Part shown: one piece after another, positions 33,961 through 38,970 of the stretch
Position numbering within the stretch: position 1 is the stretch's first letter
Layout of the letters: each line of letters begins with the position of its first letter
DNA from: Acidimicrobiia bacterium
GTDB taxonomy: Bacteria > Actinomycetota > Acidimicrobiia > Spongiisociales > JAENVV01
Reading direction: 5' to 3'
Assembly: GCA_029881355.1 (NCBI GenBank)
Contig: JAOUMT010000003.1
Location: forward strand, 1-46,925
Length of the DNA stretch: 46,925 nucleotides
Notes under the pieces: generated by a model
Seen by the model: only the letters and a program-made list of their open reading frames with translations
Told to the model about the DNA's origin: nothing
The model's database searches: none
Position numbers and translations under genes: made by a program

Positions 33961-34729
33961 GAATACCGCCCGCTCCGGTTACGCCTCCGTCAACCGGCAG
34001 GGTGACCCCCGTGATCCACGTAGCCTTATCTGAGCACAGAAAAACGATCGCGTTCGCTACGTCTTGGGGAACGCCGAGCCGTTTTAGGGGATGGGTGTTC
34101 GCGGCGGCTTCTTCATCGGCTTCCCACAACAGTCGCGAGATTCTGGTCTTGACAACGGCGGGCGCCACACAATTCACGGTGACGGTCGGGGCCATCTCGA
34201 GCGCCAGCTGCCGGGTGGTGTGGATAAGGGCCGCCTTGGCGATGTTGTAGGCACCGATCACGCGGGCGGGTTGTATGCCACCGACAGATGCGACGTTGAC
34301 AATCGACCCGCCGTTGGCCGCCATGTACTGGTTCCACGCTTGAGCCGCCCACAGGATCGGGCCGCGCTGGTTCACCGACCACGTCTTGTCTAGCGCTCCG
34401 AGGTCGACATCGGCCAGGTTCCCAGGGGCCGGGTTGGTGCCTGCATTATTGATCAAGATGTCGCACGCGCCGAAGTGTCCAATCGCTTCAGCGACTCCAA
34501 AGCGAGCCTGGTCGGGGTCATCGGCTGCCGCCACGATCCCATGGATGGACTCGGGCCGTCCCGTCAGTTCGGCGATTTCCTTGACGGCTGCCTCGACATT
34601 GTCCGGCTTGCGTGAGGTGATGACCACGCCCCTGGCGCCGGAATTGATCAGCTCTGCGGCGGTAGCCAGTCCGATGCCGCGCGATCCTCCTGTCACGATC
34701 GCAACCTGGTCGTCTACTCGTGCATCCAT
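33953..34729 (-). CDS. Short-chain dehydrogenase/reductase
   Basis: TGGSRGIG, NNAG, YNIAK. GGAGGA RBS. Confidence 0.93.
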   Translation of the reverse strand: MDARVDDQVAIVTGGSRGIGLATAAELINSGARGVVITSRKPDNVEAAVKEIAELTGRPESIHGIVAAADDPDQARFGVAEAIGHFGACDILINNAGTNPAPGNLADVDLGALDKTWSVNQRGPILWAAQAWNQYMAANGGSIVNVASVGGIQPARVIGAYNIAKAALIHTTRQLALEMAPTVTVNCVAPAVVKTRISRLLWEADEEAAANTHPLKRLGVPQDVANAIVFLCSDKATWITGVTLPVDGGVTGAGGILG

Positions 34730-34765
34730 CGTCTTTCCTCCGAGGCGATCTTAGGCGACGGTGTG

Positions 34766-35275
34766 TTAGTCAGACTCGTGGCCGCCCCGCGGAACCCCGC
34801 CGTACTTCATCCGGGTGTCCGACATGGCAGCCGGACGGGCATCATCATCGACGATGTCGCAGTGCTGGAGCTCTCCAAGAAACAATGTGTGGGTACCGCA
34901 GTCAATGGACTGGCGCACGACGCAGTCCATCCAGGCAATGGCTTCTTCGAATATCGGCGCACCGGACGGCGCTTCCCGAATCGCCCATCCGTTTAGGGAC
35001 ATCCCATCCTTTTCGGCTGGTTTGGAAAACTTGCGGAAAGGTTTCGTGTCGTCGGACGACCATAGGTTTACGGTGAAGGACCCCCCGGTTGCAATAAGGC
35101 GATGCGTGACCGCAGAGTTGTCGACGCCCACTGCGATCAGCACCGGTTTCATGGAAACCTGGGTAACCCACGATGTCGTCATGGCGTTCCACTCGTCACC
35201 GGATCTCGATCCAACCAAAACCAGAGCGTTCGGAATCTTCCACGTGATCCGGTTGATCAGCTCATTGTCGGGCAT
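34766..35275 (-). CDS. Flavin reductase family protein
   Basis: NAMTTSWVTQVS..P.LIAV, GAPIFEEAIAW.DC, GTHTLFLGE. Confidence 0.9.
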   Translation of the reverse strand: MPDNELINRITWKIPNALVLVGSRSGDEWNAMTTSWVTQVSMKPVLIAVGVDNSAVTHRLIATGGSFTVNLWSSDDTKPFRKFSKPAEKDGMSLNGWAIREAPSGAPIFEEAIAWMDCVVRQSIDCGTHTLFLGELQHCDIVDDDARPAAMSDTRMKYGGVPRGGHESD

Positions 35276-35781
35276 CAGCCAACTCCCTCGTTGTCACCGA
35301 GGTCGTCAGGGGTTCGAATGAGGCCCGGGACCATCACAACGGGAATCGTCGAACCCTGCATGACTTTCACGGCCACGCTCTGCCAAACGTCCTCGGTGAA
35401 TATCGGCCGGGTCGCCCCCATCACGATGATGTCGATCTGCCCTTCGGTGACCGTTTCCAGAATTGCCGCGGCCGGATCGGCCGACTCGACGAAGAGTGGT
35501 CGAGCAACCAAACCAGCTGCGTCGAGCCCGGCCAAGATGGGCTGAATAAGTCGACGGCCGCGTTCGTCGACGTAGCGAGCCACTTGACGTTCCGATTCTG
35601 GACTCATCGAGTTGTCGGCGAACGGGCGCCATTCCTCGGTCTCGAGTTCCTCCAGGAACGAGCGAGGGACTTCGATGCTCGTCATGACCGTGATTGAACT
35701 CCCGGACGACCACAGCGCGGTAACCAGATCCACGACGGCTGCCGGAGGCAGCGCTCCGGCAGTGGCGATAAGAATGTGCAC
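35275..35781 (-). CDS. Universal stress protein family
   Basis: HILIAT, DPAAAIL, IDIIVMGA, SVAVKV...IPVVMVP. Confidence 0.82.
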   Translation of the reverse strand: MHILIATAGALPPAAVVDLVTALWSSGSSITVMTSIEVPRSFLEELETEEWRPFADNSMSPESERQVARYVDERGRRLIQPILAGLDAAGLVARPLFVESADPAAAILETVTEGQIDIIVMGATRPIFTEDVWQSVAVKVMQGSTIPVVMVPGLIRTPDDLGDNEGVG

Positions 35782-35896
35782 CTGCCCACAATAGGACGCC
35801 CGACAACCAGGCGCGTCGAAAGGTGCCCGGCGACCGACCGACCACCGAGGCCGCGAAAATATTCCTCAAATCACGTTTGAGAAATTGGCCGCCGCT

Positions 35897-35904
35897 GCCG
35901 ATAA
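35897..35904 (+). promoter_or_regulatory. Putative sigma-28 (FliA/WhiG/SigD) -10 element GCCGATAA
   Basis: Exact match to the sigma-28 -10 consensus, starting 44 nt before the ATG. The -35 match (TGAG at N15) is weak. Confidence 0.5.
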
Positions 35905-35940
35905 CAAACACAGGACACCACGCAGGGATGAGGAACAGTT

Positions 35941-36138
35941 ATGAAGCAAACATTTGGATTGTCGTGGGACCACGGAAAACGCAAACTCGCCGCCGCCGTC
36001 GCCCTCCTGGTTATCACCATCACACTGGCTCTTGCTCCGGCAAACTCCAGTCTCGAAGCAGGACGGTCCGCCGATACCGGCATCACCGTCGGAGTTGAAA
36101 GCACCAGTTTCACCCTCCGGGGATCCACCTGGGGCTAG
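35941..36138 (+). CDS. Small secreted/membrane peptide precursor A (65 aa, ends LRGSTWG)
   Basis: GAGGAA RBS; basic n-region and hydrophobic h-region. About 70% identical to 36318-36518 (46/66 by hand), with many synonymous changes. Confidence 0.85.
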   Translation: MKQTFGLSWDHGKRKLAAAVALLVITITLALAPANSSLEAGRSADTGITVGVESTSFTLRGSTWG

Positions 36139-36158
36139 GCCCAGCCAAGTCACAACGA

Positions 36159-36187
36159 AAAGGCACCCTTCCTCCGAGGGTGCCTTT
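36159..36187 (+). terminator. Intrinsic terminator-like hairpin after peptide A
   Basis: AAAGGCACCCT-tcctccg-AGGGTGCCTTT (11-bp stem) followed by CTCGTTTCT. Confidence 0.75.
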
Positions 36188-36272
36188 CTCGTTTCTGGGA
36201 CGTCGTCGCCCGAACAAGTGACTAGTCATTTGATGGGTGGCGAGTTTGGTTCTCGGGTTTTTGCGACCGGCG

Positions 36273-36280
36273 GCCGATAC
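36273..36280 (+). promoter_or_regulatory. Putative sigma-28-type -10 element GCCGATAC
   Basis: Same position relative to the ATG as in unit 1 (45 nt); preceded by TCGGGTTT-N12. Confidence 0.45.
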
Positions 36281-36317
36281 ATAACTCAAGACACCATCGC
36301 CAGGGTAAGGGATTGAC

Positions 36318-36518
36318 ATGAATCAAACATTTGGGTTGTCGTGGGATCACGGAAAACGCAAACTTGCTGCCGCTATCGCCTTGCTCGCGATCGCCGTCAG
36401 CCTGGCACTGACGCCGGCGACTACCAGCCTCGAAGCCGGCAAGAAGACCGGCAACGGCGCGGTCACCGTCGAAGTCCAGTCAACCAGCTTCTCTCTCCGG
36501 GGATCCACCTGGGGCTAG
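36318..36518 (+). CDS. Small secreted/membrane peptide precursor B (66 aa, ends LRGSTWG)
   Basis: AAGGGA RBS; paralog of 35941-36138. Confidence 0.85.
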   Translation: MNQTFGLSWDHGKRKLAAAIALLAIAVSLALTPATTSLEAGKKTGNGAVTVEVQSTSFSLRGSTWG

Positions 36519-36538
36519 GCCCAGCCAAGTTACAACGA

Positions 36539-36570
36539 GAAAAGGCACCCTTCCTCCTGGGTGCCTTTTC
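36539..36570 (+). terminator. Intrinsic terminator-like hairpin after peptide B
   Basis: GAAAAGGCACCC-ttcctcct-GGGTGCCTTTTC (12-bp stem). Confidence 0.78.
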
Positions 36571-36599
36571 TGCTGTGATGAGCCAGCAATACCCGTTTT

Positions 36600-36621
36600 T
36601 GTCACCCTGCGTTGGCATGAT
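36600..36621 (+). promoter_or_regulatory. Possible RecA-NDp/PafBC-type DNA-damage promoter (leaderless)
   Basis: TGTCAC-N10-CATGAT, then 6 nt to ATG 36628. The consensus is TGTCRG-N10-TAnnnT, so there is one mismatch in each box. Confidence 0.35.
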
Positions 36622-36627
36622 GTCCTC

Positions 36628-36984
36628 ATGCACATATGCGACGTTGCCCCCGCTCCCCTAGGTCAGGTCAGCCTGAGCGTCTGCGCCGATTGTGCCCACT
36701 ATGCATGGACCGACGCGGCCGGATCACCCGTCGATCCTGCCGAAGGGATTGCATCTGTGTTCGGTCCGTTCCCACTCATTGAGCGACTGACGGCCATCGG
36801 CGCCCCCGGCGGACTGGCACTCATCTACCAGGTACCGGCCCGCTACCGCTCGCGACTCAGCGTCCTACCAATCGGCGTCTGGACCCAGATTCACCCGGCA
36901 CTATTCGCCAGCCAGGATGGGATGAACTTGATGCTGGCACCGACCGATCCAGCCGTCTCACGCTCTGTCGCCGCTACCGGCTAG
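36628..36984 (+). CDS. Hypothetical protein (118 aa, N-terminal His/Cys cluster)
   Basis: ORF fills the gap before the convergent ABC gene. Contains MHIC...CADCAH. No family recognised. Confidence 0.65.
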   Translation: MHICDVAPAPLGQVSLSVCADCAHYAWTDAAGSPVDPAEGIASVFGPFPLIERLTAIGAPGGLALIYQVPARYRSRLSVLPIGVWTQIHPALFASQDGMNLMLAPTDPAVSRSVAATG

Positions 36985-37074
36985 CCAAGCGGCGGAACAA
37001 CGAGCCGAAAGCCAGCCGGGTTTCGCCACGGTCGATGGTGCGGGCCGCCCGCAACCCATCGGCACGACCACGTA

Positions 37075-38970
37075 TCAAGCGATCGGCTGGTTGCGGAACT
37101 GGGTTTCGAACAGAGCGGCGTAGAGTCCACCGTCATCGAGCAATTCGTTGTGGGTCCCGGCCTCGACCAGCCGGCCGTCTTGGAGGACCAAAATCCGGTC
37201 GGCGGCCAGAATCGTCGACAGCCGGTGGGCGATAACGATCGAGGTCCGCCCCTCCATGACGCGTTCCAGGGCATCTTGGATGAGTGCCTCCGATTGCGAA
37301 TCAAGGTGTGAGGTGGCCTCATCGAGAATCAAGATCCGGGGATTCTTCAGGATGACGCGGGCGATGGCCATTCGCTGCTTTTCGCCACCCGACAAGCGGT
37401 AGCCGCGCTCGCCTACCAGCGTCTCGAAACGATTTGGCAGGGAATCGATGAAGTCAAGGATGTTGGCTGCCCGACAGGCCTCGACCAGTTCATCCTCGGT
37501 GGCGTCGGGTTTGGCATAACGGAGGTTGGCACCGATGGTGTCGTGGAACAAGTAGCTCTCCTGAGTGACGATGCCGATCGCGTCTGCGATCGACCCCAGC
37601 GTGAGGTCCCGCACGTCGTGCCCGTCGATGCAGATGGCTCCCTCGGTGACGTCATACAACCGGGGAACCAGGTAGGAAATCGTGGTCTTGCCTGCGCCGG
37701 ACGGCCCGACGAGGGCGATCATCTGACCAGGCAAAGCGTCGAACGAGACGTCACGGACCGCCCAGGGTCTCCCGATTGGACCGTCCATGGTTTCCGGAGT
37801 GTCTGGCGTGCCACCACCAAACGCGCGAAATCGCTTGACAGCTTCCAGGCCTTCGCCCGTGTCATATCGGAACGAGACGGACTGGAAAGTGATCCGCCCG
37901 TCAACTCGTCCGAGGTGAACTGCACCGTCTTTCTCACCGATATCCAGCGGCAAGTCGAGCACCTCGAATACCCGCTCGAAGCTAACCAGTGAAGTGGCGA
38001 ACTCGACCCGGGCGTTCGACAATGCCGAAAGGGGCCCATAAAGCTGGGCGGTAAGCGTCGAGAACATCACCAACTCGCCGATCTCGATGACCCCATTGAT
38101 GACCATCGCACCACCAACCCAGAACACACCTGCGGTCCCCACGGCCGTCACCAGGCCGAGGGCAGCGAAAAACCACCGACCTACCAGAGCCCGTCGAACT
38201 CCGAGGTCGCGTACGGCAGCAGCCTCGACCGCAAACTTGTCTTGCTCCATGCGGGATCGGTTGAAGAGCTTGACGAGCAACGCCCCGCTCACGTTGAACG
38301 TCTCCTGAAGGATGCTCGACATGTTGGCGTTGTGCTCCATCGCCTGTTCGGTAACCCGTCGTAGGACCTTGGCCACCCGTCTGGCCGGATAAACGAACAA
38401 CGGCAATGCAGCAACGGCCAGCACCGTAAGACGCCACTCGGTGCCGAGCATCACGACGAGTATCACCACGACCGACACCAGATTCGACACGATGGTGACA
38501 AAGGTCCCGGTGATGGCTGACTGGGCTCCGACGACGTCGTTGTTCAGGCGGGAAATCAACTCGCCGGTTCGGGTGTTGGTGAAAAACCGGAGTGACATGG
38601 CCTGCAGGTGGGCATACGACTGGCGGCGGAGATCGAAGATGATTCCCTCGCCAACCCGAGCCGACAGCCAGCGTTGGAAACCCCCCACGATGGCGTTGCC
38701 GAAAGGAACCGCCACCATCGCCAACCCGAGGATCGTCAGGTAGCCGAAGTCCTTGTCAGGAATTGCCCGGTCGAGCAGCTCCCGAATGAGGATGGCCGGC
38801 AGGACGGTGAGGCCCGAAATCACCAGGATCGTGGCGAAGACGCCGACCAGCGCCAACCGGTACGGACGGGCATAGGCAAAAACCCGCTTCAGTAGCCCCC
38901 GATCGACCTTGGGTTTGTCTTGGTCTTCGTCGTATTGGAGCCGGGCGTACCAGCCACCACCGTGAAACAT
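37075..38970 (-). CDS. ABC exporter, fused permease/ATP-binding (MsbA/multidrug type)
   Basis: TM domain; Walker A GPSGAGKTT; signature LSGGEKQR; ILDEATSHLD; IAHRLST. Confidence 0.95.
   Translation of the reverse strand: MFHGGGWYARLQYDEDQDKPKVDRGLLKRVFAYARPYRLALVGVFATILVISGLTVLPAILIRELLDRAIPDKDFGYLTILGLAMVAVPFGNAIVGGFQRWLSARVGEGIIFDLRRQSYAHLQAMSLRFFTNTRTGELISRLNNDVVGAQSAITGTFVTIVSNLVSVVVILVVMLGTEWRLTVLAVAALPLFVYPARRVAKVLRRVTEQAMEHNANMSSILQETFNVSGALLVKLFNRSRMEQDKFAVEAAAVRDLGVRRALVGRWFFAALGLVTAVGTAGVFWVGGAMVINGVIEIGELVMFSTLTAQLYGPLSALSNARVEFATSLVSFERVFEVLDLPLDIGEKDGAVHLGRVDGRITFQSVSFRYDTGEGLEAVKRFRAFGGGTPDTPETMDGPIGRPWAVRDVSFDALPGQMIALVGPSGAGKTTISYLVPRLYDVTEGAICIDGHDVRDLTLGSIADAIGIVTQESYLFHDTIGANLRYAKPDATEDELVEACRAANILDFIDSLPNRFETLVGERGYRLSGGEKQRMAIARVILKNPRILILDEATSHLDSQSEALIQDALERVMEGRTSIVIAHRLSTILAADRILVLQDGRLVEAGTHNELLDDGGLYAALFETQFRNQPIA

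Follow-up and report, generated by a model that had tools for sequence, protein, structure and literature searches.

What do two small tandem genes in an Acidimicrobiia genome encode, and with what might their products act? The genes, here called A and B, lie in a stretch of 46,925 nucleotides (nt) from an Acidimicrobiia bacterium (GenBank assembly GCA_029881355.1, contig JAOUMT010000003.1, forward strand), which we refer to as the window; its own genome is G000.

35941..36138, + strand: gene A, 65 amino acids (aa); FGLSWDHGKRK n-region, hydrophobic segment, S-L-E-A, variable linker, C-terminal GSTWG.
36318..36518, + strand: gene B, 66 aa; architecture as in gene A; C-terminal GSTWG.

The two products are 72% identical, contain no cysteine and have a common layout: M-x-Q-T-F-G-L-S-W-D-H-G-K-R-K, an 18-residue hydrophobic stretch ending in Pro, S-L-E-A, a variable linker and S-T-S-F-(T/S)-L-R-G-S-T-W-G. 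A reading of the window from its letters alone (the sequence-only reading) had proposed a candidate peptide-signal system. The part of that proposal which holds these to be selected genes for small, probably exported proteins stands, but a free-standing signalling system is disfavoured by protein modules shared with S8-family serine proteases (subtilases), by residue co-variation and genomic co-occurrence with them, and by a common promoter layout. Together, these move the likeliest role from a free-standing pheromone system to a subtilase partner, and on balance we lean towards the small proteins being exported single-unit partners of the tryptophan-pentapeptide tails, (G-x-x-W-S)n, of these subtilases.

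We searched 61 related genomes in all six frames. Here and below, tallies of small genes, repeats and the sigma factor WhiG include two unpublished genomes, G025 and G036, which are WhiG-positive, gave no credible small-protein or repeat match and support no positive claim about small proteins or subtilases. Credible relatives of the small genes were found in 11 of the 61 genomes: six of the same genus (G000, G001, G002, G004, G006 and G007), G008 together with G014, G010, G011, and G045 of another family. They occur as one to three tandem copies, and the reading frame is kept in 17 genes from 5 genera, all insertions and deletions being whole codons. Among 13 genes of the genus (78 pairs, Nei-Gojobori), the ratio of nonsynonymous to synonymous substitution (dN/dS) was 0.23 for the whole gene, 0.08 for FGLSWDHGKRK, 0.03 for RGSTWG, 0.19 for the hydrophobic stretch and 0.32 for the linker, with a proportion of synonymous differences (pS) of 0.34-0.64. 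The coding selection that the earlier reading had argued for is thereby confirmed: the small genes are real protein-coding genes under purifying selection. Its 'invariant' LRGSTWG needs qualifying, as RGSTWG is tightly kept within the genus but other genera end in VTWG, LSWG, SSWS or VSWS, so that the C-terminus across genera reads G/x-x-x-W-(G/S). The only invariant positions of the cross-genus alignment are M1, G6, L7, W9, A19 and W65. Within the window, the C-terminal motif of the gene pair has a pS of 0, and the last 21 coding bases plus ∼40 bases of the 3' untranslated region, terminator included, are nearly identical; in the window alone, the 'invariant' C-terminus could therefore reflect recent duplication or gene conversion.

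The proteins match no known family: neither Pfam nor NCBIfam gave one, and Rfam on 34500..38000 returned just a miRNA match of 22.3 bits, short of its gathering score of 64. A profile search of the PDB with the family alignment found nothing below E 0.1, the ESM Atlas held no match of 0.9 or better for the small proteins, and its structure rows name no family. A word-indexed search of 5.8 billion clusters returned 14 proteins, all of them free of Pfam domains and one bearing the name 'hypothetical protein', and a HMMER profile search of 1.84 billion representatives gave 10 with E ≤ 0.001. All 10 of these profile matches keep the N-terminal motif and end one residue past the Trp. Named records with relatives are all metagenome-assembled genomes of uncultured Acidimicrobiia or Actinomycetota. 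The small proteins are an undescribed family of uncultured Acidimicrobiia.

The GxxW motif at both ends of each product (GLSW and GSTW), which the earlier reading had correctly pointed out, proved the key to the subtilase link. Three loci (L044, L045 and L046) encode S8 subtilases (PF00082) of 613-679 aa that start with ...F-G-L-S-W-D-H-G-K-R-(T/V)-R, a hydrophobic stretch and A-S-A, and that end in a run of (S/G)-A-S-W-S pentapeptides. The same arrangement, an N-terminal GLSWD(H/G)G with a hydrophobic region and C-terminal Trp-pentapeptide repeats, recurs in the subtilases of G045 and G046, where the N-terminal motif is GLSWDGG. Profile-profile comparison of the small family with subtilase N-termini gave a probability of 89.9% (E 1.7e-6) over 28 columns. 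When G000 was scanned in six frames for G-x-x-W-x, three open reading frames (ORFs) stood out, all of them subtilases: one of 620 aa on contig C122, one of 632 aa on contig C62 and a fragment at the start of C62. The C122 and C62 proteins carry 12-14 GSTW(S/G) units by regular expression (11 GSTWS and one GSTWG are listed for the 620-aa protein), G-S-N-W-T, and G-L-T-W-D-H-G-K-R with 2-3 further residues. The small proteins end with one such unit, GSTWG, and begin with GLSWDHGKRK, a near-match of the GLTWDHGKR that closes the subtilase tail. Many subtilases of the class, like the small proteins, end exactly one residue past a Trp. Within one subtilase, the repeat units are encoded by a wide range of synonymous codons (Ser, for instance, by TCN as well as AGY), which indicates that the repeat is kept at the protein level. 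All 120 listed relatives of the tail carry PF00082 and are named just 'serine protease AprX' or 'S8 family serine peptidase', and the best NCBIfam match of the subtilases is mycosin, below its cut-off (154 bits versus 278.75).

Some further observations concern the subtilase genes themselves. In G000 they form a tandem array that the assembly breaks in or near the repeats: C122 ends inside a gene, a further subtilase gene beginning at that end, and C62 starts inside a tail. The copy number of at least three is therefore a lower bound. The array's neighbours on C122 encode LppM, a DNA methylase, APH, a LysM-M23 protein, an RlmN-like protein and a permease, none of which offers a lead. Read-through of the TGA codon after the subtilase repeats was considered and dropped, nothing motif-like lying past the stop. 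On contig C78 of G001 (L073), a contig end holds GASWS repeats with nearly identical codons, besides the GSTWS-type subtilases of that genome; either a second type of subtilase or contamination (2%) could account for them.

The last unit of the small proteins follows the repeat of the subtilases across genomes. G000, G001, G002, G004 and G006 combine a small-protein end GSTWG with a subtilase repeat GSTWS; in G010 both are GSSWS (twice at the small-protein end); LVTWG goes with GVTWS in G008, AVTWG with GVTWS in G014, GLSWG with GLSWS in G011, and SVSWS with GVSWS in G045. The match thus holds in all 10 genomes, from 5 genera, in which both were read, through the versions STW, SSW, VTW, LSW and VSW. 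The codons differ between small gene and repeats, with Ser as AGC versus TCN in G011 and Val-Thr as GTC ACC versus GTG ACG in G014, so the match is not a recent copy of DNA and the co-variation lies at the protein level. Other subtilases of the order and of the protein collection use yet further units (ASW, NTW, ATW, TTW, MSW and NSW); the unit is thus not bound to one form, and still the small protein keeps pace with it. It is unusual to find so clean a signal of residue-level co-variation between a five-residue C-terminus and repeats encoded at other loci of the same genome; it would mean that whatever reads the tails also recognises which unit the small protein carries.

A small gene of this kind would fit a subtilase gene reduced to its two ends. 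On that ground the small genes might be nothing more than decaying subtilase remnants, in which an internal deletion left leader and last unit with no function of their own. Their resemblance to a subtilase cut to both ends, and the homology of their leader to subtilase leaders, are what such an origin would leave. However, remnants would hardly be under purifying selection, be kept in 5 genera at two different genomic positions, each have their own ribosome-binding site (RBS) and terminator, and track the subtilase unit in different codons; this explanation has next to no chance of being right.

The co-variation also bears on whether the small proteins could be ligands of the protease active site, with G-x-x-W occupying P4-P1 and the proteins timing protease activity as dedicated substrates, as decoys or as inhibitors that resemble a product. 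In nine aligned subtilases the catalytic D197, H235 and S422 do not vary, and the tails would offer many such sites. Subtilisin propeptides are usually removed by self-cleavage at the propeptide end, and 6 of the 9 have an I9 propeptide that closes with G-W-(D/E/Q) at this usual position. However, the propeptide ends (GGGW, GDGW, SAGW, AAGW, GAGW and LLGW) do not track the tail unit across lineages, so active-site specificity alone cannot explain the co-variation of the middle residues, and a cut after the Trp would take off just the last residue. We consider an active-site ligand very doubtful.

Co-occurrence points in the same direction as the shared modules. A degenerate DNA pattern for four consecutive units detected Trp-repeats in 21 of the 61 genomes, among them 10 of the 11 with small genes; none were found in G007, which is 90% complete. 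Within the window's family (f1), repeats and small gene occur together in genera g1, g2, g4 and g5, and both are missing from genera g3, g6 and g7. Profile searching of the four genomes behind L044-L047 matched subtilase N-termini only and found no small gene. The small proteins are a narrow, lineage-specific addition to a broad subtilase class.

The genes of both groups also share a promoter layout, of which the window holds the following elements.

35877..35904, + strand: promoter region of gene A; -10 element GCCGATAA at 35897..35904, upstream block TTGAGAAAT at 35877..35885; no ACTAGT palindrome.
36219..36228, + strand: palindrome TGACTAGTCA, a candidate operator or activator site; ACTAGT starts 52 nt 5' of the gene B -10 element.
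36245..36280, + strand: promoter of gene B; block TTTGGTTCTCGGG at 36245..36257 (CTCG at 36252..36255), 17-nt spacer, -10 element GCCGATAC at 36273..36280.

The earlier reading had given each gene a promoter of its own. A GCCGATA does lie 44-45 nt 5' of each ATG, but a scan found no sigma-70-type promoter in 35700..36700. All 17 family genes have G(C/T)CGATA or ACCGATA 35-56 nt 5' of the start codon (GCCGATA in 14, GTCGATA in 2 and ACCGATA in 1), and the gene A blocks are kept 5' of the first array gene in 5 genomes of the genus. Upstream sequence reaches far enough in 16 family genes, and in 11 of them the palindrome, as (G)TGACTAGTCA(C), stands ∼53 nt 5' of the -10 element, namely in all but the first gene of each tandem array and in the single genes of other genera; the G045 gene has it as well. 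All 11 subtilase genes read (from the window's own genome, three genomes of the genus and L044-L046) have the palindrome, a TTGGTTC(T/G)CG(A/G)G-like block and G(C/A/T)CGAT(A/G), so that the layout common to small and subtilase genes is the palindrome ACTAGTCA, ∼53 nt and GCCGATA. In the window, ACTAGTC-N40-50-GCCGATA occurs once, before gene B, versus 0.00 expected in 100 shuffles. A looser composite is found at 10 places in G000 (those on C24 and C241 being the same sequence at overlapping contig ends), including gene B, three subtilase genes, a gene for a surface protein of >1441 aa and a 58-aa ORF.

A -10 element of this form is that of the sigma-28 (FliA/SigD/WhiG) class. A -35 TAAA with -10 GCCGATAA is given as the WhiG-class consensus in PMC8325347, and T(A/C)AA-N16-GCCGATAA and CTCA-N16-17-GCCGAACT are further forms in a preprint (bioRxiv 10.64898/2026.01.14.699351). 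The gene A -10 element is a full match to the former consensus, and CTCG-N17-GCCGA of gene B is one base off the CTCA-N16-17-GCCGA in section 8 of the preprint. In relatives, the composite with an exact CTCA-N17-GCCGA stands before a GAF-GGDEF-EAL gene upstream of the small gene (G014, L025 4727) and before a gene for a 561-aa type-IV-pilin-like protein with the N-terminus G-F-T-L-P-E (G011, L024 12736, in the orientation of the peptide gene). WhiG targets described outside Streptomyces include enzymes of cyclic di-GMP (c-di-GMP) metabolism and type IV pili (PMC8325347; bioRxiv 10.64898/2026.01.14.699351). G000 encodes a WhiG/FliA sigma factor scoring 273.7 bits versus the TIGR02479 cut-off of 189.6 (L033, C314:13658-14326), its gene lying between a xerC-like recombinase gene and rpsB-tsf; no flagellin was found in G000. 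It also has a 177-aa RsiG-like ORF on the minus strand of C281, with one exact copy of E-x3-S-x2-R-x3-Q-x3-D, the published RsiG c-di-GMP motif, and one copy with His for Gln. The promoters of the small and subtilase genes are thus probably of the sigma-28/WhiG type and would form a regulon read by WhiG, marked by the conserved palindrome. This would suggest a role of WhiG in non-flagellated, non-sporulating Acidimicrobiia, in control of secreted proteases, a giant surface protein and small secreted proteins, and in relatives it would extend to a c-di-GMP enzyme and a pilin-like protein.

Three of the places in G000 that carry this kind of upstream sequence lie outside the small and subtilase genes. 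The gene of the giant protein (L070, C24:78-4561, repeated at the C241 end) is preceded by GGTGACTAGTCACC and GGCCGATG, a composite promoter, and encodes a secreted protein of >1441 aa with repeated surface-protein-like segments. Its N-terminus reads R-R-I-S-W-G-A-R-R followed by a hydrophobic stretch, and its first 500 residues are without a Pfam family. At L051 (C12:758) and L052 (C246:11105), the palindrome and GNCGATA occur once before the 58-aa ORF, which is without a signal sequence, and once without a clear ORF.

The small proteins are predicted to be exported. The earlier reading had described a hydrophobic h-region, a possible signal peptidase site, a variable linker and a conserved C-terminus, and an alignment of 23 rows supports this description. 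Most of the rows have aliphatic-x-Ala (or Ser) at a fixed distance past the hydrophobic core, with A or S at -1 and an aliphatic residue or F at -3; the G010 row is ambiguous. The triplets are L-E-A, I-E-A, V-E-A, L-Q-A and F-D-A, with A-M-A and A-Q-A in more distant members. Basic residues stand directly before the core, placing the N-terminus inside the cell, and the same leader is found on subtilases with an I9 propeptide, which must be exported. Because of this site and this shared leader, cleavage by signal peptidase is expected, and would yield a mature peptide of ∼24-30 residues with the unit at its end and a free carboxylate.

Were the leader instead left uncleaved, the small protein would be a single-pass membrane protein, N-terminus in and C-terminus out, whose cytoplasmic motif binds or signals to a partner, and the subtilase link would come down to shared signal-peptide ancestry. 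Such a protein would account for an n-region with a dN/dS of 0.08 and invariant G6, L7 and W9, far beyond what an ordinary signal peptide needs, and for a long hydrophobic stretch (18 residues) after KRK or RR. Nonetheless, the aliphatic-x-Ala at a fixed distance past that stretch is conserved, the same leader serves I9-propeptide subtilases that need export, and the co-variation of the C-terminal unit is left unaccounted for, which makes an uncleaved leader distinctly improbable as the full explanation.

How might a single unit act on a tail? Compared by sequence with the PDB, the subtilase tail comes closest to the pentapeptide-repeat proteins QnrB1 (E 0.0043) and Qnr (E 0.01). Two of the 120 listed tail relatives have a PF13576 annotation, and Pfam gave no Pentapeptide match at E ≤ 0.1 on the L044 and L046 subtilases. 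Likeness to the pentapeptide-repeat proteins (Qnr, MfpA) lies in the period of 5, a small residue at i-2, a large hydrophobic one at i and Gly or Ser at i+2. The tails differ in having a central Trp for Leu/Phe, in being fused to a secreted protease and in giving no AlphaFold2 fold, and the small proteins carry one or two units only. If the Qnr likeness is real, the variable first middle residue would be the inward-facing i-2 position, which would give a structural reason why a stacking unit must match the tail.

We propose the following model. A WhiG orthologue would transcribe the genes, probably gated by the RsiG-like anti-sigma factor and c-di-GMP, and a protein binding the palindrome would modulate transcription. 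The N-terminus would act as export signal and be cut after aliphatic-x-Ala, to leave a peptide of ∼25 residues ending in one unit, and the partner that recognises the tail units would recognise this one too. We favour direct contact, in which the single unit would stack on or cap the repeat tail (capping, docking or competition) and thereby determine the location or the activity of the proteases; with the leader uncleaved, such contact would hold the proteases at the membrane. An unannotated small family would thereby gain a concrete partner, the widespread and uncharacterised actinobacterial S8 proteases with Trp-pentapeptide tails.

Several observations weigh against this partnership. Repeats without a small gene were found in f6 (4/4 genomes), f12 (3/3), f9 and, apart from G045, f4, and a search with the tail only returned 913 proteins at E ≤ 0.001 among 8000 scored. 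Since Trp-tailed subtilases are far commoner and more widespread than the small genes, the tails do not need the small proteins. Nor do the small genes adjoin a subtilase gene in any locus read: in G000 the two lie on different contigs, and in the closed genome G045 0.4-2.4 Mb apart. The model has no account of why the N-terminal motif, expected in the cytoplasm or in the cleaved leader, should recur at the extracellular C-terminus of subtilases in g1 and g4. Stacking of the unit on the tail would rest on a weak sequence likeness to pentapeptide repeats, and AlphaFold2 gave the tail a predicted local distance difference test score (pLDDT) of ∼23 in the full C122 model (mean 50.1, 9-row alignment) and of 41.3, with no secondary structure, when modelled alone. 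Expression, export, cleavage and binding of the small proteins are likewise predictions. On the promoter side, the -35 region, compared by eye, is not a canonical match. That of gene A is poor, with 2 of 4 positions fitting CTCA or T(A/C)AA, and the five first-gene promoters, gene A among them, have 2 mismatches to CTCA; 8 of the 11 palindrome-type promoters come within one mismatch of CTCA at N16-18, and an exact CTCA-N17-GCCGA is found in one family gene. Finally, WhiG is present in 57 of the 61 relatives, and its presence was rejected as a discriminator for the small genes. A complex prediction of the ectodomain (35-66) with subtilase residues 185-620 scored 0.16 and 0.11 against a mark of 0.32, which is evidence neither way.

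The genes around the small genes bear on whether the peptides could be signals in their own right. Pfam on the 16 flanking proteins of the window found a flavin reductase (Flavin_Reduct), Usp, a 118-aa protein of no family, an ABC exporter, SDR, DUF427, DUF4032 and Lhr. The flanks of the g2 and g5 small genes hold a GAF-GGDEF-EAL protein and CoA_binding_2, both upstream, and SDR. No TPR-type regulator (Rap, NprR, PlcR, PrgX or AimR) stands next to the small genes in the window or in the g2 and g5 flanks, and no Opp-type importer lies beside any small-gene locus. The 16 flanking window proteins include no prenyltransferase, radical SAM enzyme, lanthionine synthetase, cyclodehydratase or the like, no genome-wide search having been made. 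The statement of the sequence-only reading that neither receptor nor modifying enzyme is visible beside the genes therefore holds, whereas one of its suggestions fared badly: precursors of a ribosomally synthesized and post-translationally modified peptide fit poorly with proteins that have no Cys, a Sec-type leader and no tailoring gene among their flanks. No RRNPP-type, kinase or prenyltransferase gene stands beside any locus examined. Synteny around the small genes in g1 and g4 is general synteny, and the context in g2 and g5 differs; BLASTP at 1e-8 on stop-to-stop ORFs in all frames, a noisy table, found no gene common to both contexts apart from generic ABC/SDR similarity.

Pheromone precursors would nevertheless be conceivable if the co-expressed subtilases or other proteases trimmed the pro-peptide to a short C-terminal Trp peptide, with the receptor encoded elsewhere and the tails as a possible second, multi-copy source. 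The signal peptide, variable spacer and conserved C-terminal pentapeptide recall the Phr layout; the 1-3 paralogues have separate promoters and terminators; the genes share their promoter layout, as co-regulated genes would, with S8 proteases; the unit differs between genera but is uniform within a genome across all its sources, as a pherotype would be; and small proteins and many subtilases alike end exactly one residue past the W. However, no receptor, Opp-type importer or kinase was found beside any locus, the residue before the unit varies (R, L, M or Q) and leaves no conserved cleavage site there, and release of the peptide is predicted only. We regard a pheromone as unlikely; were it true, it would be a new way to encode a peptide signal. 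In its most elaborate form, the Trp-pentapeptide would be a lineage-specific 'word' (STW, SSW, VTW, LSW, VSW and others), and the proteases would cut both themselves and the small proteins to release a common short Trp signal from cell to cell. Each protease would in that case be equipped with a poly-pheromone of its own, and genera of non-sporulating Acidimicrobiia would have diverged in the manner of pherotypes. To our knowledge there is no precedent for a repeat tail as poly-pheromone, and we think this quite unlikely.

Compared with known systems, the small proteins resemble the Phr pro-peptides of Bacillus (RRNPP systems): both are small precursors in which a Sec-type leader is followed by a variable spacer and the C-terminal pentapeptide is conserved. 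Maturation of Phr peptides is the work of subtilisin, Epr and Vpr, and a further likeness is transcription by an alternative sigma factor with subtilisin-family proteases in the same regulon, here predicted from the promoters. The small proteins differ in that no Rap- or TPR-type receptor gene is adjacent, in that the proteins have no Pfam/NCBIfam similarity and a strongly conserved n-region, and in that the pentapeptide is also the repeat unit of the proteases' tails, which is not known from Phr systems. YSIRK-G/S and KxYKxGKxW are n-region motifs of Gram-positive surface proteins, and like them the motif here is conserved, precedes the hydrophobic core and is common to a defined exported set; here, however, the motif is a different one and is also the extreme C-terminus of subtilases in two genera. 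By contrast with the class III signal of type IV/Flp pilins, the aligned small proteins have no G|(F/M)xxxE, and their basic residues abut the hydrophobic core. With sigma-28 (FliA/SigD/WhiG) regulons and the RsiG-c-di-GMP-WhiG switch (PMC8325347; PMC7005675), the common points are the -10 GCCGATA(A/C/T) at the expected distance, a -35 near the CTCA type in most palindrome-type promoters, a WhiG orthologue above cut-off, an RsiG-like ORF, and GGDEF-EAL and type-IV-pilin-like targets in relatives. The extra palindrome TGACTAGTCA ∼53 nt 5' of the -10 element goes unmentioned in those parts of the literature that were compared, and subtilases and small secreted proteins are not named as targets in the main text of the preprint (bioRxiv 10.64898/2026.01.14.699351). 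The words 'protease', 'peptidase', 'subtilisin' and 'Acidimicrobi' are absent from that main text; its Tables S4-S6 may list such targets. Searches of the published literature for the repeat-unit strings, the family-motif strings and the combination of pentapeptide repeats with subtilisin-like C-termini in Actinobacteria found nothing, and the subtilase tie, the co-variation and the promoter link of the small family were not found in print, the search extending to the WhiG papers without their supplementary tables.

The remaining elements of the gene pair bear out the earlier claim of two ORFs of 65 and 66 aa, each with its own RBS and terminator.

35930..35935, + strand: RBS of gene A, GAGGAA, 5 nt 5' of the ATG at 35941.
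36307..36312, + strand: RBS of gene B, AAGGGA, 5 nt 5' of the ATG at 36318.
36159..36197, + strand: intrinsic terminator of gene A; loop UUCCUCC, 12 pairs and then a T-rich tail (simple scan); -24.5 kcal/mol, z -4.30.
36538..36579, + strand: intrinsic terminator of gene B; loop CUUCCUCC; -27.3 kcal/mol, z -6.53; missed by the simple scan.

Both ORFs were read, none of 200 shuffles folded as well as either hairpin, and a U-rich run follows each. The terminator loops (36171..36177 and 36551..36558) keep (C)UUCCUCC, as they do in related loci, and this loop is complementary to the Shine-Dalgarno-like GGAGGAA. The stems co-vary between genomes (GGCACCC, GGCGCCC, GAGCGCCC and GGCGTCCA). Downstream of the pair lies a 118-aa ORF (36628..36984) with no family match. 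Between this ORF and the gene B terminator, AATACCCGTTTTTGTCAC occupies 36588..36605; four other genomes of the genus have it in the corresponding position, and it could serve the downstream ORF as promoter or operator.

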